A stretch of DNA of 64,000 bases from Candidatus Omnitrophota bacterium (GCA_041653115.1 JBAZGA010000003.1:1832-65831); one strand, 5' to 3'. Positions 6,599-10,791 are shown, numbered from the stretch's first letter. The notes: generated by a model not told the origin, from the sequence alone. Made by a program: numbers and translations.

Positions 6599-7339
6599 CT
6601 AAGTTTTATCCGTCTTTTTTAAGGACAGTGAAAGATTCTTCCTGTCCCTTTCGTTATCTAATGGCTGCCAAAAACCGTTATACCTGTAAGCATAGAGCTC
6701 TTTTTTAGAAACAAGTTCCTCTAAAACATCCGTCTCTAGAACGCAGGCCGGATCTACAGACAGTTTTTTCAAAGCAAAGATTTCCCGGTTAAAGATATAA
6801 AACCCGCCGCAAACATAATCTTTCTCAAGCACGGGCCTTTCAGAGAACCCCTTCACTATGTCATCAACATCATAAAGACCGAGTATCCTGAAACGGGTCG
6901 GATTATGCGCGGCAAGCAATGTTGCGGTCCTGCCGTGGCTTAGATGGAACAAGAGCAAATCGCGTAAATTGACATCTGAAAGCGTATCGCCGTAGGTCAG
7001 GCAAAAGACGGATGAATAATCTACCATAGAAGACACCTGGGCAAGCCGTGAGCCCGTCATATTATTAATCCCGGTATCAACTATATTTACGTCCCAGTCC
7101 TTCCGGCTTAGACCGGGCAGCTCCTTTATCTTTTCTAATCCATGTCCGGCGCAAATAATGAATTTCCTAAAGCCCGCTTTACTATAATGGTCCATAATAT
7201 ACAGAAGCAAAGGAACGCCGTTAACTTCCACCATAGTCTTGGGAATTATAGAGCTATTTAAGCCTAAATTTATCCCCGCGCCACCGGCAAGTATAACCAC
7301 CGGCATCCCGGCTATGATCTTATTAATGTCCCCTTTCAT
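6599..7339 (-). CDS. Sugar-phosphate nucleotidyltransferase family protein, a divergent RfbF-like paralog
   Basis: 246 aa. Similar to the rfbF product at 11812..12612 (WQPLD..R, YGDT, VDTG). The G-loop reads AGGAGINLG instead of GGxGTRL. Confidence 0.55.
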   Translation of the reverse strand: MKGDINKIIAGMPVVILAGGAGINLGLNSSIIPKTMVEVNGVPLLLYIMDHYSKAGFRKFIICAGHGLEKIKELPGLSRKDWDVNIVDTGINNMTGSRLAQVSSMVDYSSVFCLTYGDTLSDVNLRDLLLFHLSHGRTATLLAAHNPTRFRILGLYDVDDIVKGFSERPVLEKDYVCGGFYIFNREIFALKKLSVDPACVLETDVLEELVSKKELYAYRYNGFWQPLDNERDRKNLSLSLKKTDKT

Positions 7340-7367
7340 GTTTCCAGCTCCTTATTTGATTAACCGT

Positions 7368-8186
7368 TTATTTAACAAGTTTTGTATCTGCTAATTTTTT
7401 CTCGCGGAGCATTTCCGCGATTGTATCTACGGCTCCGCCGGAACCTACTACATAGCTAATCTCGTTTATACCTTTAACCCGTTCAATATAAGCCTTGCAC
7501 CCCGCTTGAAGGGCAATGGGAAAAGCGCCCGCCACATCCCATAGTTTATTGGCAACCCCGTAGGCGCACTGAAGCCGGCCTGAAGCAACATAGCAAATAT
7601 TAAACGAGGCGCATCCTGTCCTAAGGCATCCCCGGCTTTTATCATTTATTATGCCAAAAAAATCATATTCCTTTCGCCTTGCCGTTTTATTAGAATATCT
7701 TCCCGAGATAGAAGCGGCGATAAGGGAATTCTCCAGGCTCGCAGGATGGACTTTTAAGGCTTTCCCGTTCATGAAAGCCCCGCGGTCCCCCATCGTAAAG
7801 AAGATTTCCTTTAAAGCAGGCATTACCACGGCACCGGTGAGAAATCTGGAATCAAGCATCAACCCCGCGGAAATAGCATAAAAAGGCAAGGAGGAAATAA
7901 AATTTGTTGTCCCGTCAATAGGGTCAATAAACCAGGCCGGCTTATCCGGGGATATGCTTAATTTATTATCTTTACTCCCTTCTTCACCGATAATTTGATA
8001 TCCGGAGCTGCTTAGGATTTCCCGTATATGCTTTTCAACAGCTATATCCAGTTCGGTAACAATATCCCGGGGCGTGCCCTTATTTTTAAAATCAATGTTT
8101 TCCGGCGTCTGGCCTTCTATTATGCTTAAACTTGTCGATATTGCTTTAAGGGCTAATTCTGACTCTAATACCCAATTTGCCTTCAT
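7368..8186 (-). CDS. Inositol-monophosphatase family phosphatase (IMPase/SuhB/CysQ fold)
   Basis: 272 aa. Metal-binding motifs EE..., WFIDPIDGTTNFI and the C-terminal WD.AAG. Confidence 0.78.
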   Translation of the reverse strand: MKANWVLESELALKAISTSLSIIEGQTPENIDFKNKGTPRDIVTELDIAVEKHIREILSSSGYQIIGEEGSKDNKLSISPDKPAWFIDPIDGTTNFISSLPFYAISAGLMLDSRFLTGAVVMPALKEIFFTMGDRGAFMNGKALKVHPASLENSLIAASISGRYSNKTARRKEYDFFGIINDKSRGCLRTGCASFNICYVASGRLQCAYGVANKLWDVAGAFPIALQAGCKAYIERVKGINEISYVVGSGGAVDTIAEMLREKKLADTKLVK

Positions 8187-9304
8187 AAAACTGCCTTTTT
8201 TGAATTTGAAGTTAAAACTCCCAGTTGCGATAATATCTTCGGAAGGCGCTCCCTGATTGCTATCTCCAGCGCCTCGCCTTTTCTTAAGCCCAATATGTAG
8301 GTTATGAATACGTCTTCCGGCAGTGCATTCCGGATAAAACTAAGATGGTGGTCTAAGTCCTCTTTATTCTCAAAAAGCAGCGCAGTGGTAATCCCGGTCA
8401 GTATATTATTTGGTATAAAACCAAGTGATAGGCAGATTTGAGCAGCACCGATAAGCCGGCCTTCTAATTGTAATTTTCTTAACGGCTCTCTTGCAACGCG
8501 CGAGATTGGGTCATAGAGAAGCTCGCAGGAGAAGCGCCGGATTTCTTTCTCGGCATAATAATCCAGGAATAGATGCGGAATATCCCATTTTAATTTTAAA
8601 GAGGTGAGCATTTCATTCATTGCGCCGGTGACAATCTTCTTAACCCCGGGTAATTGCATCGCTTCGTGGATATATTTGGCGCCGACAAGCGCGCCCAGGT
8701 AAGCGGCAATACAATGCGGGGTATTATGCAGAAATAGCTTGGCAATCCATTGTTTATCAAGTTCCGCTGCGTCACAATAAACCGCATTCCCTTTTATGCC
8801 TCTTACCCGTTCATCCATAAAGAGGATACCGTCTTCGGTAATAATTGAAAGCGGCTCTTTTGCCAGCATTTCCGGAGAAGCGGCATTGGAAGTTATGACA
8901 TCGGGTATCGCGAAATATACCTTTTCGTAATTTAAGGCATCCTTTACTGCCGTAACTGTTTCCGGGTCATTTTCGCAAAGAATCACCGGGCATTCAACGC
9001 CCTCCAGAGCATTTGCCGCCGCGGTGCAGTTACGCGGCCCCACATTCATAAAAACGGCAATCGCATCGCGGTGCTCTAAAAATGAAAACTCCGAAAGATG
9101 GCATGCTTTTTTTACCGGGACAACCAGCTCTTCAAGCTTACCGGATTTCACCCGGTATGATTTATACTGTTTCTTTCGATTAAGGGAATTGATTAATTCG
9201 CGGTTGATATCTACAAAAACATATTCATAGGAATCGGGAGTGAATACCCACGGGAGGAACCCTCTGCCGATAGCGCCCGCTCCTAAGATTATAATCTTAC
9301 TCAT
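8183..9304 (-). CDS. Mannitol dehydrogenase family oxidoreductase (MtlD/UxaB-like)
   Basis: Start taken at the internal MSKIIILGAGAIGRGF (Rossmann), which forms an ATGA overlap with the uxaA stop at 9301-9303. It is co-linear with E. coli MtlD (LHNTPHCIAAYLG; VAREPLRKLQLEGRLI against RQPLRKLSAGDRLI). Confidence 0.7.
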   Translation of the reverse strand: MSKIIILGAGAIGRGFLPWVFTPDSYEYVFVDINRELINSLNRKKQYKSYRVKSGKLEELVVPVKKACHLSEFSFLEHRDAIAVFMNVGPRNCTAAANALEGVECPVILCENDPETVTAVKDALNYEKVYFAIPDVITSNAASPEMLAKEPLSIITEDGILFMDERVRGIKGNAVYCDAAELDKQWIAKLFLHNTPHCIAAYLGALVGAKYIHEAMQLPGVKKIVTGAMNEMLTSLKLKWDIPHLFLDYYAEKEIRRFSCELLYDPISRVAREPLRKLQLEGRLIGAAQICLSLGFIPNNILTGITTALLFENKEDLDHHLSFIRNALPEDVFITYILGLRKGEALEIAIRERLPKILSQLGVLTSNSKKAVL

Positions 9305-10791
9305 AAGGTTTCTCCCAGCTGCCAAGGCACAAACTCCTCTTTCCCTAACCCCTGTTTTTCGCTGCATGTAGGCCTGCCTCCGGCAACCTGAATGAAGGAA
9401 TTATAAATTTCCCGGCCTACTTGCTCAAGGCTGCTTTTAACCAAAGATCCTCCGGCATCTAAATCCATATCATTTTTAAATTTATTAAACAGTTCGGAAT
9501 TAGTGGCGATTTTTAGAGTCGGGGCTATTGAGCATCCATACATTGAGCCCCTGCCGGTTGTAAAGGCAACCAGATTACATCCGCCGGCAACCAATCCGGT
9601 TACCGATACAGGGTCAAACCCCGGCGTATCCATAAATACAAGCCCCCTTCCGGTAATCTGTTGGCCGTAATCAAGGACCTGCCTTATCGGGGAAACCCCT
9701 GCTTTGGATATAGCGCCGAGGCTTTTTTCCAGGATACTGCTGATGCCTCCGGTTATATTACCGGGCGCAAGGTTATTATTCATGTTTATATTATGGAATT
9801 TTGCAAGTTTACGCCAGTGCAGGAAGATATCCCGCAATCTCTCCTTGTCTTTTTTTGATACGCACCTTTTTGAAAGTAGCTTTTCTGCTCCAAAACATTC
9901 CGGTGTTTCCCCCAAAACAACCGTCCCTCCATACGAAACCAGGGTATCGCTGGCAATACCGAGAGCCGGATTTGCAGTAATGGCGGAAAAAGCGTCGCTG
10001 CCGCCGCAATTCAAAGCCACGGTTAACAAAGAAACCGGAAGATTAACGCGCTTAAAAGACGGCAGGCCGGATAATACCCTCTCTACTTTTTTTACGCCTA
10101 AAGCAATTGCTTTCTTTGTCCCGCCGGCATCCTGGATATTAAAAGAATCAAATAAGGGCAAGCTTAATTTATTTCTTTTTTCTAAGCCTGAAATAATACT
10201 CCTGACATTAATATCTTCACAGCCCAGACCGATTACCACTGCGCCGGCAACATTGGGATGAGCAAACCAGCCCGCTATCGTCCTGTTCAATAACCTGTCG
10301 GAACGTCCGCCCAATGCCTGAGCGCAGCCGCTATGATGGACGATAGGGATGACTCCGTCAACTTTAATTTTTGAAAGCTTTGCGTTTTCAAAGTGCCGGG
10401 AAACGTCTCTTACTACCCTAGCAGAGCAATTGACGGTTGAGATTACGACTACATAATTCCTGGTCCCCGCTCTTCCGTCTTTCCTAAGGTAGCCCTGGAA
10501 AGTATGGGGCAGACGGGATCTTCCCTCCGGCATAAACTTACCCGGAGCGCTTTCAGAAAATTCTATCTTATCCGAGAACCTCATATTATGCATATGCACA
10601 TGCTCTCCGGGCATTATGGTCCTCTTGGCTAATCCTATAACTTGACCGAATTTTATTACCGGTTTGTTAGCACCGATTCTCTTAAACGCGATCTTATGGC
10701 CTTCTGGCACCCTGCCTCTTGCTGCCGTAACTACGCATACGTTGTCAGCAGGATTAAGAAGCAAACTCTTGGCAATCTGTCTTACTGTCAT
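9301..10791 (-). CDS. UxaA-family (altronate/galactarate) dehydratase
   Basis: 496 aa. N-terminal SAF domain plus a C-terminal dehydratase domain, matching the length and order of UxaA/GarD. Confidence 0.72.
   Translation of the reverse strand: MTVRQIAKSLLLNPADNVCVVTAARGRVPEGHKIAFKRIGANKPVIKFGQVIGLAKRTIMPGEHVHMHNMRFSDKIEFSESAPGKFMPEGRSRLPHTFQGYLRKDGRAGTRNYVVVISTVNCSARVVRDVSRHFENAKLSKIKVDGVIPIVHHSGCAQALGGRSDRLLNRTIAGWFAHPNVAGAVVIGLGCEDINVRSIISGLEKRNKLSLPLFDSFNIQDAGGTKKAIALGVKKVERVLSGLPSFKRVNLPVSLLTVALNCGGSDAFSAITANPALGIASDTLVSYGGTVVLGETPECFGAEKLLSKRCVSKKDKERLRDIFLHWRKLAKFHNINMNNNLAPGNITGGISSILEKSLGAISKAGVSPIRQVLDYGQQITGRGLVFMDTPGFDPVSVTGLVAGGCNLVAFTTGRGSMYGCSIAPTLKIATNSELFNKFKNDMDLDAGGSLVKSSLEQVGREIYNSFIQVAGGRPTCSEKQGLGKEEFVPWQLGETL

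Follow-up and report, generated by a model that had tools for sequence, protein, structure and literature searches.

Steitz et al. proposed in 2022 that YerE-like enzymes, which depend on thiamine diphosphate (ThDP), add functionalised 2-keto acids to CDP-4-keto-3,6-dideoxyglucose to give long acyl-branched sugars, the donor keto acids being made by a neighbouring aldolase (PMC9306805). The YerE-like enzymes ErwE, MMAR_2332, MyGE and JanthE use 4-hydroxy-2-keto acids of four to eight carbons as donors (PMC9306805; PMC12188165), with JanthE taking keto acids up to 4-hydroxy-2-oxovalerate (PMC12188165), and in the characterised clusters a keto-acid-forming module sits beside the genes for the ThDP enzyme and a short-chain dehydrogenase/reductase (SDR) (PMC9306805; PMC12188165). 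Here we describe a 64,000-nucleotide stretch of DNA from Candidatus Omnitrophota bacterium (GCA_041653115.1 JBAZGA010000003.1:1832-65831; "the window" in what follows) in which four genes on the minus strand (6599-10791) lie between an RfbG-like gene and the gene for a YerE-like ThDP enzyme. They encode a UxaA-like acid-sugar dehydratase, an MtlD-like oxidoreductase, an IMPase-family phosphatase and a degenerate paralogue of RfbF, which we call NTPtr2. We put at about even the chance that the role of this module is to supply the donor in an acyl-branched-sugar pathway, as a dehydratase-based variant of the published scheme.

The clusters for yersiniose, erwiniose, caryophyllose and gastriose (PMC9306805) and the JanthE cluster (PMC12188165) share with the window an RfbF, a 4,6-dehydratase, an RfbH, a YerE-like ThDP enzyme, a YerF-like SDR and a module that could deliver a 4-hydroxy-2-keto acid. 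In the published clusters the donor comes from pyruvate aldolases of the BphI/BphJ or HpcH type, whereas the loci that carry the four-gene block are mostly free of aldolases and have the block instead. The block is predicted to yield a fully hydroxylated 2-keto-3-deoxy-aldonate as donor rather than a deoxygenated hydroxy-keto acid.

The YerE-like enzyme and the four genes beside it

The ThDP enzyme (4793-6595, minus strand, 600 aa) has three TPP domains, a GDG-x26-NN motif and the catalytic Glu within HEQAA. Its best match in the PDB is JanthE (8RPH; 446 bits, compared with 265 bits for the top acetolactate synthase), to which it is 38% identical. The adjoining genes encode RfbH and a YerF-like SDR reductase (3871-4791, minus strand, 306 aa), and the latter matches the SDR immediately downstream of JanthE over its full length (39% identity, E=6e-78). 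Domains, motif, catalytic residue, proximity to JanthE and neighbours thus all agree with those of YerE-like enzymes, and the protein is predicted to be a carboligase of this type that catalyses the decarboxylative addition of a 2-keto acid to a CDP-4-ketosugar. A role in IolD-type inositol catabolism, or one following the logic of acetolactate synthase, ketol-acid reductoisomerase and dihydroxy-acid dehydratase, was ruled out, as the sequence lies much nearer to JanthE and the gene still has RfbH and YerF for neighbours. We note that the NCBI annotation starts the ThDP gene three codons later (597 rather than 600 aa; window 6586-6595), which would widen the gap upstream of it from 3 to 12 nt.

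Three further enzymes, judged by family membership, would provide the acceptor, a CDP-4-keto-3,6-dideoxyhexose. The glucose-1-phosphate cytidylyltransferase RfbF (11812-12648, minus strand, 278 aa) has an intact GGRGTRL motif and scores 339 bits against TIGR02623 (cut-off 300). The RfbG-like NDP-hexose 4,6-dehydratase (10826-11824, minus strand, 332 aa) contains Epimerase and GDP_Man_Dehyd domains and scores 189 bits against TIGR02622, below the equivalog cut-off of 278. RfbH, or E1, the CDP-6-deoxy-4-hexulose 3-dehydrase (2540-3874, minus strand, 444 aa), reaches 707 bits with the NCBIfam model, whose cut-off is 423. The JanthE locus has the order RfbF-RfbG-RfbH-JanthE-SDR-BphJ-BphI, the last two genes encoding an acetaldehyde dehydrogenase and a 4-hydroxy-2-oxovalerate aldolase. 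The window contains no homologue of HpcH or BphI, so that the aldolase of the Steitz scheme is missing and its slot is taken by the dehydratase module.

The four genes are tightly packed. The dehydratase gene (9301-10791, 496 aa) begins 34 nt after the RfbG-like gene, and its stop codon overlaps the start of the MtlD-like gene (8183-9304, 373 aa) in an ATGA at 9301-9304; a second ATGA, at 8183-8186, joins the stop of the MtlD-like gene to the start of the IMPase gene (7368-8186, 272 aa). A 28-nt gap that includes AAGGAG separates the IMPase gene from that for NTPtr2 (6599-7339, 246 aa), and only 3 nt lie between the latter and the ThDP gene. A longer open reading frame (ORF) begins at 9367, but the MtlD-like gene itself starts with the ATG at 9304. 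Every gene from 1 to 22 kb of the window is on the minus strand, GC content is even across the block with no discontinuity, and no convincing terminator was found in the interior of the operon. The first-pass annotation, a model's reading of the bare sequence, had named these four gene families, called the nucleotidyltransferase a divergent RfbF, and placed the block between a ThDP enzyme and rfbG; the ORFs, their strand, the Pfam and NCBIfam matches and both flanking assignments bear this out. Its statement that the genes are joined by overlaps or short gaps is also correct, except that it recorded one ATGA overlap where there are two.

Conservation of the block across bacteria and archaea

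Homologues of the UxaA-like dehydratase that are at least 50% identical were followed into their contigs. These are a JGI metagenome contig (L002), Methanospirillum sp. GCA_053578395.1 (L004, archaeal), Geothrix sp. 21YS21S-2 of the Acidobacteriota (L005), another Omnitrophota metagenome-assembled genome (MAG; L007), an Acidobacteriota MAG (L123), a Bdellovibrionales MAG (L124) and a 705-kb contig (L126). In all seven, the dehydratase, MtlD-like and IMPase genes, hereafter the trio, are present with a ThDP enzyme adjoining or near, and the bacterial loci also carry an RfbF paralogue and RfbH. Both ATGA overlaps are kept in L002, L004 and L005, among them loci of other phyla. The most compact locus, L126, contains only RfbF-RfbG-RfbH-UxaA-MtlD-IMPase-NTPtr2-ThDP-SDR. 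A Thermoplasmatota MAG (L125) has RfbF, RfbG-like, UxaA-like and MtlD-like genes, after which the contig ends.

In total, the module recurs in 17 loci, which come from Omnitrophota, Acidobacteriota, Bdellovibrionales and Methanospirillum and lie within glycan clusters, and a YerE-like ThDP gene occurs in every block locus with enough flanking sequence, usually together with RfbF, RfbG and RfbH. When the ORFs of 15 block loci were clustered, the MtlD-like and IMPase families were each found in 15/15, with the IMPase gene directly downstream of the MtlD-like gene every time, the NTP-transferase family in 14/15 and the ThDP enzyme in 13/15, the remaining two loci being cut by contig ends. The dehydratase, a 4,6-dehydratase-type SDR and RfbH are the other recurring families; no kinase, isomerase, transporter or regulator recurs among the 15. 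Gene order within the module varies by lineage and adjacency is kept. A metagenome scan with the MtlD-like protein as query returned 34 loci, and wherever the match is at least 51% identical and has flanking sequence, the IMPase gene is next to it and a ThDP gene is present. The NTPtr2 gene is absent from the Methanospirillum locus.

A genome scan with the UxaA alignment recovered mostly catabolic relatives and serves only as a negative control. Among the 79 nearest UxaA relatives outside the block clade in this genome-collection scan (42-48% identity), none has the module partners; of two that were inspected, one lies beside UxaC and the other beside a TctC transporter.

These comparisons bear on the idea that the block is a catabolic island for hexuronates or polyols, acquired by horizontal transfer and unrelated to the rfb genes, a scenario that the first-pass annotation had named as fatal to its own proposal. 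The families concerned are indeed best known from the Ashwell pathway and mannitol catabolism, and like the UxaB/UxaA pair of the former, and GarD/GarL, the block places a mannitol-dehydrogenase-family reductase beside a four-Cys UxaA/GarD dehydratase whose product is predicted to belong to the 2-keto-3-deoxy sugar acids. The resemblance to an Ashwell operon ends there. UxaC, KdgK, KdgA, the transporter ExuT and the regulator ExuR are absent from the window cluster, none of them recurs in the 15 block loci, and the context is biosynthetic; the reductase is of the short mannitol-1-phosphate dehydrogenase (M1PDH) type with a phosphate pocket rather than the long UxaB type; and the relatives that are truly catabolic fall in a clade of their own and have different neighbours. 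Shared strand, close coupling on both sides, uniform composition and retention inside glycan clusters across phyla count against an insertion as well, and we consider that the context effectively refutes it. The suggestion that enzymes of catabolic type have been recruited as a unit to glycan precursor synthesis gains support from the same conservation.

The Methanospirillum glycan cluster (L004 1-21560) combines the trio with heptose-activation genes (HldE-like, SIS and HAD) and encodes four kinds of enzyme that form C-C bonds, namely E1 alpha/beta, a split transketolase, the YerE-like ThDP enzyme and TAL/FSA, in addition to a radical-SAM/SPASM protein and several methyltransferases. Full-text literature searches found no description of this gene combination, one survey of YerE-like clusters being outside their reach. 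Krug et al. 2024 (Angew. Chem.) reportedly surveyed >200 YerE-like clusters.

Dehydratase, oxidoreductase-phosphatase pair and RfbF paralogue

The dehydratase belongs to the UxaA/GarD superfamily (COG2721). It matches the Pfam domains GD_AH_second (E=2e-36) and GD_AH_C (E=3e-89), its N-terminus matches the SAF fragments 3K3S/3LAZ, with SAF itself detected in homologues, and GarD (6U7L) is found in the PDB with E=7e-76. Comparison of its active site with those of the characterised enzymes showed that C122, C156, C191 and C262 are kept in 99-100% of 92 sequences, among them E. coli UxaA and GarD; the four conserved cysteines of the family have been proposed as iron ligands (PMC6336799). Isofunctional orthology with GarD or UxaA was not found. 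The protein scores 307 bits against TIGR03248, for which the equivalog cut-off is 731, it is 35% identical to each of the E. coli enzymes and 46-47% to catabolic relatives, and neighbour-joining places the dehydratases of the block in one monophyletic group apart from the latter. A 2-keto-3-deoxy sugar acid is the predicted class of product.

Two loci give an indication of the substrate. In L097 and L119, the gene that immediately precedes the MtlD-like one encodes not a UxaA-like enzyme but an enolase-superfamily protein closest to L-fuconate dehydratase/ENOSF1 (4A35, E=3e-84; 1YEY, E=1e-73). The occupation of one slot by two unrelated folds of acid-sugar dehydratase argues that the step is the dehydration of a sugar acid. 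Watanabe et al. (2019) described a UxaA-family enzyme as a D-arabinonate dehydratase that also uses L-fuconate and, weakly, D-altronate, and the enolase-type FucD uses the same acids (PMC6336799). Taken together with the exchange, the shared substrates point to an arabino/altro configuration at C2-C4. The enzymes of that study are catabolic, whereas the putative dehydratases of the block form a clade of their own.

Two further features of the gene were noted. A fifth cysteine, Cys299 in a PEC motif, is invariant in the block clade and occurs in ∼11% of all aligned family members. An antisense ORF (9704-10261, plus strand, 185 aa) lies within the dehydratase gene and is seen again in five homologous loci; the simplest view takes it for the other-strand shadow of a conserved coding sequence rather than a gene.

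The MtlD-like protein has the Pfam domains Mannitol_dh and Mannitol_dh_C and is of the short M1PDH type, with the M1PDHs 3H2Z and 5JNM as its best PDB matches. It falls well below the M1PDH equivalog level, with a top NCBIfam score of 154 bits where 404 is the cut-off. Its GAGAIG motif, K189-x4-N194-x2-H197 and the phosphate-pocket residues R272/R276/R283 are invariant in five block homologues; the reference arginines are R283, R287 and R294 of the S. aureus M1PDH structure (PMC6623548), and these three pocket arginines distinguish M1PDH from mannitol 2-dehydrogenase. The downstream phosphatase is a clear member of the IMPase family (Inositol_P, E=3e-41, 142 bits against a cut-off of 27) with its metal and substrate motifs GEE, DPIDGT and WDVAG at residues 67, 88 and 216. 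Because the catalytic Lys/Asn/His and the three pocket arginines are kept, the substrate of the MtlD-like enzyme is probably phosphorylated, with the IMPase removing the phosphate afterwards. The pair recalls the bifunctional MtlD of Acinetobacter and the S. aureus M1PDH (PMC6623548) in these residues, and its phosphatase gene is coupled directly downstream, although the phosphatase has the IMPase fold and not the HAD fold seen in mannitol synthesis by M1PDH and phosphatase. Mannitol as the end product is unlikely because the pair is tied to the dehydratase and the ThDP enzyme. We considered 6-phosphogluconate, fructose 6-phosphate, sedoheptulose 7-phosphate, uronate 1-phosphates and arabinose 5-phosphate as substrates, and none satisfies all constraints without an unusual activity. 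A main role of the M1PDH-like enzyme as ketoreductase of the branch, the role of YerF, was rejected since the locus already has an orthologue of YerF.

Distant relatives of the pair (38-47% identity for the MtlD-like protein and 33-38% for the IMPase) are found in a different conserved cluster. In L109 (2141-13764) it comprises an aldo-keto reductase, a CTP_transf_3 cytidylyltransferase, a class-III aminotransferase, two ATP-grasp ligases, an NHL-repeat protein, a NeuB-family synthase and a GT1 glycosyltransferase. Relatives of the pair also occur in L105, L107, L108, L110-L113 and L115-L117, in all of which an ATP-grasp gene precedes the MtlD-like one and some of which also have a NeuB gene. 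The gene content of the cluster suggests the synthesis of a modified CMP-ulosonic acid. The pair thus adjoins three different makers of 3-deoxy-2-ulosonic acids (UxaA-like, FucD-like and NeuB-like), a hint that the two enzymes form a cassette that can be reused.

These properties also allow the same pathway to be read in another order. The dehydratase would then act on a phospho-aldonate to give a 2-keto-3-deoxy-omega-phospho acid, like 2-keto-3-deoxy-6-phosphogluconate, that resembles fructose 6-phosphate, and the M1PDH-like enzyme and IMPase would tailor its tail, either on the CDP-sugar branch after ligation or on the free keto acid before it. The intact phosphate pocket and catalytic residues would suit such a substrate, the ATGA-coupled genes run in the order dehydratase, dehydrogenase, phosphatase, and the setting of the distant pair beside a NeuB-type 3-deoxy-2-ulosonic-acid synthase, a CMP-transferase, an aminotransferase and ATP-grasp ligases fits ulosonic-acid tailoring. 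However, the characterised UxaA- and FucD-type dehydratases considered here use non-phosphorylated aldonates (PMC6336799), and reduction of the branch ketone is already covered by the YerF-like SDR. We regard this order as unlikely, while giving it more weight than the other alternatives considered here.

NTPtr2 is most similar to glucose-1-phosphate cytidylyltransferases. Its best NCBIfam match is TIGR02623, at 182 bits and so under the cut-off of 300 for an RfbF equivalog, and it matches the RfbF structure 1TZF with E=1e-38. Where RfbF has GGxGTRL, NTPtr2 has GGAGINLG, and the motif is degenerate in 14/14 family members examined, whereas the canonical RfbF of the same loci keeps GTR. The family retains the Lys of the PK motif and both Mg-binding Asp residues, and many members are without the ∼25-residue insertion of RfbF. 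GalF differs from GalU in the same manner, the Thr-Arg of GxGTR being replaced, and the equivalent change cuts GalU activity ∼500-fold (Ebrecht et al. 2015, PMC4643126). Like GalF, NTPtr2 is a paralogue of the cluster's own sugar-1-phosphate nucleotidyltransferase in which the remaining fold and Mg ligands are kept; it derives from the RfbF (CDP-glucose) lineage and not from GalU. NTPtr2 is probably a weak or non-catalytic helper of the GalF kind, or has a changed activity, rather than being a second cytidylyltransferase. On a 180-kb contig (L088), the 10 kb around the ThDP gene and RfbH hold no RfbF-like gene besides NTPtr2 (11958-12860); there it may still serve as cytidylyltransferase, or a canonical gene may lie elsewhere.

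The first-pass annotation had seen in the four genes a self-contained route to an unusual NDP-activated sugar or sugar acid. Spelled out, such a route could lead from fructose 6-phosphate via mannitol 1-phosphate to CDP-mannitol or another CDP-alditol, in the style of the pneumococcal mnp genes, or to a 3-deoxy-aldonic acid substituent, with the ThDP enzyme acting independently and using pyruvate like YerE. An M1PDH-like enzyme with an intact phosphate pocket does stand beside a protein of NTP-transferase fold, and an M1PDH-phosphatase fusion is reported for mannitol synthesis in Acinetobacter (PMC9168451). The NDP-transferase step is doubtful, though, since the catalytic Thr-Arg of GxGTR is gone from the whole paralogue family, a change of the kind that is so costly to GalU. 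The IMPase would use up the alditol phosphate on which cytidylylation depends, and the acid-sugar dehydratase would be left without a role, yet it is conserved and even swapped for an analogous enzyme; a CDP-mannitol or CDP-alditol route is unlikely on these three counts. The invariant partner of the trio is, moreover, the adjoining YerE-like carboligase, at each locus with enough flank and also at the Methanospirillum locus, where NTPtr2 is missing. Self-containment and a nucleotide-activated product are thus the parts of the first proposal that fare badly, and we hold the route improbable. A 2-keto-3-deoxy sugar acid that serves as acyl donor is the more likely product of the module; a sugar or sugar acid activated on its own as an NDP derivative is less likely.

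The putative donor route and its alternatives

The gene families, motifs, coupling, conservation and co-occurrence described above are direct observations. Their best explanation, in our view, is based on the architecture of the window, which is that of the JanthE locus and the Steitz scheme with the aldolase module exchanged for the four genes, and on L126, which holds nothing else. From these we infer the chemistry of each step, which acid is involved, and the sequence in which dehydrogenase, phosphatase and dehydratase act. The M1PDH-like enzyme, by a redox step, and then the IMPase, by dephosphorylation, would make a sugar acid from a phosphorylated precursor. The UxaA-like dehydratase would remove water from this 2,3-dihydroxy sugar acid, probably of arabino/altro configuration at C2-C4 as in D-altronate, D-arabinonate, L-fuconate and L-galactonate, to leave a polyhydroxylated 2-keto-3-deoxy sugar acid. 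The YerE-like enzyme would decarboxylate the keto acid and transfer the acyl anion to C-4 of the CDP-ketosugar, and the YerF-like SDR would then reduce the new ketone. The predicted product is a 3,6-dideoxyhexose with a 1,3,4(,5)-polyhydroxyalkyl branch, destined for lipopolysaccharide (LPS) or another surface glycan, and NTPtr2 would probably act as a weak or non-catalytic helper like GalF if it does not have an altered activity. In a more specific version, D-arabinose 5-phosphate would be converted to 5-phospho-D-arabinonate, D-arabinonate and 2-keto-3-deoxy-D-pentonate, and the branch would be 3,4-dihydroxybutanoyl. D-Arabinose 5-phosphate is a candidate in that it is one carbon shorter than fructose 6-phosphate and has the same configuration, and this version would demand an unusual oxidation of a hemiacetal or hydrate by an M1PDH-type enzyme.

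Several observations weigh against this pathway. An M1PDH and a phosphatase by themselves yield a free polyol and not a sugar acid, and no conserved enzyme in the 15 block loci explains the source of the carboxylate. The distant MtlD-like/IMPase pairs, beside NeuB and ATP-grasp genes, occur without a ThDP enzyme. The block-associated ThDP enzymes do not form one clade; co-evolution of the ThDP enzyme and the trio as a single clade was looked for, and two ThDP subtypes were found instead. An E3 reductase (AscD/DdhD) was not seen in the annotated stretches of the window (1-22 kb and 22.5-35 kb), which leaves the acceptor pathway incomplete on paper; the gene list of the JanthE locus likewise shows no E3-type gene. 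Finally, L005, L088, L119 and L123 hold the trio together with an HpcH aldolase, encoded directly after a ThDP gene, and in these four loci the aldolase could be the keto-acid maker while the trio does something else.

Extended to all block loci, the last point becomes an alternative in which pyruvate aldolases, of HpcH type or encoded elsewhere, make the donor as in mycobacteria, and the trio either provides or regenerates the aldehyde partner or acts on a sugar acid by epimerisation or trimming, for instance through dehydration and retro-aldol cleavage in the manner of GarD/GarL or RhmD/RhmA. The ThDP enzymes of the four loci are those closest to JanthE, and pairs of dehydratase and HpcH are classic in sugar-acid catabolism, garD and garL being neighbours in E. 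coli. Most block loci, including the window, L002, L004, L007, L090, L124 and L126, nevertheless have no aldolase within 10 kb, and building a 2-keto-3-deoxy acid only to cleave it would be wasteful. An accessory role of the trio seems to us quite unlikely, if a little less so than the self-contained CDP-alditol route. Direct supply of the acyl donor by the dehydratase remains the reading that we prefer.

Within the window, the operon comprises, in order, a helix-turn-helix gene, RmlA, an RmlD-like SDR, RfbF, the RfbG-like gene, the four-gene block, the ThDP enzyme, the SDR, RfbH, a GT2 glycosyltransferase, RmlB and an Fcl-like SDR. RmlA (13429-14295, minus strand; NCBIfam rmlA, 461 bits) is the first gene after the helix-turn-helix gene and is followed by that for the RmlD-like SDR (12609-13439, minus strand), assigned from domain and family matches. 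The annotated GT2 glycosyltransferase (1851-2543, minus strand) and the dTDP-glucose 4,6-dehydratase RmlB (858-1838, minus strand) lie at the other end, where the left edge of the window cuts through the Fcl-like SDR; the operon goes on beyond it. A terminator-like hairpin at 14861-14839, upstream of the cluster, parts it from gapdh. Just upstream of gapdh and the glycan operon, two tandem GalT/HIT-like nucleotidyltransferase paralogues (DUF4921/DUF4931 and GalP_UDP_transf) are found at 15920-17940. A second envelope-glycan region (22555-31332) encodes an SDR, a radical-SAM protein, a DegT aminotransferase, two GT9 heptosyltransferases, ManC, a Wzy_C/WaaL-type O-antigen ligase and two GT2s, from which it follows that the organism probably makes LPS to which a branched sugar could be attached. 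A 686-aa ORF at 32908-34968 has no Pfam match at E<=1e-5.

In its broadest form, our proposal is that the module constitutes a third, dehydratase-based route to donor keto acids for YerE-like enzymes, with still-unseen higher-carbon sugars as components of surface glycans in Omnitrophota, Acidobacteriota, Bdellovibrionota and two lineages of archaea. We advance it tentatively, at somewhat less than an even chance. The sugars predicted would be 3,6-dideoxyhexoses, or heptose derivatives in Methanospirillum, with 1,3,4(,5)-polyhydroxyalkyl branches, and NTPtr2 would be a GalF-like pseudo-enzyme or have a new activity. The interest of the module comes from its breadth, which reaches the archaea, from the new sugars that it predicts, and from the unexplained chemistry of its M1PDH-like/IMPase pair. 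"Catabolic" families of the Ashwell and mannitol types may be annotation traps when they occur in glycan clusters. If the proposal is true, it would represent a new branched-sugar logic in which sugar-acid dehydration replaces aldol condensation, ThDP biocatalysis would gain natural enzymes that may take polyhydroxylated chiral keto-acid donors, and side-chain chemistry would become predictable from sequence in phyla that are almost without cultured members.

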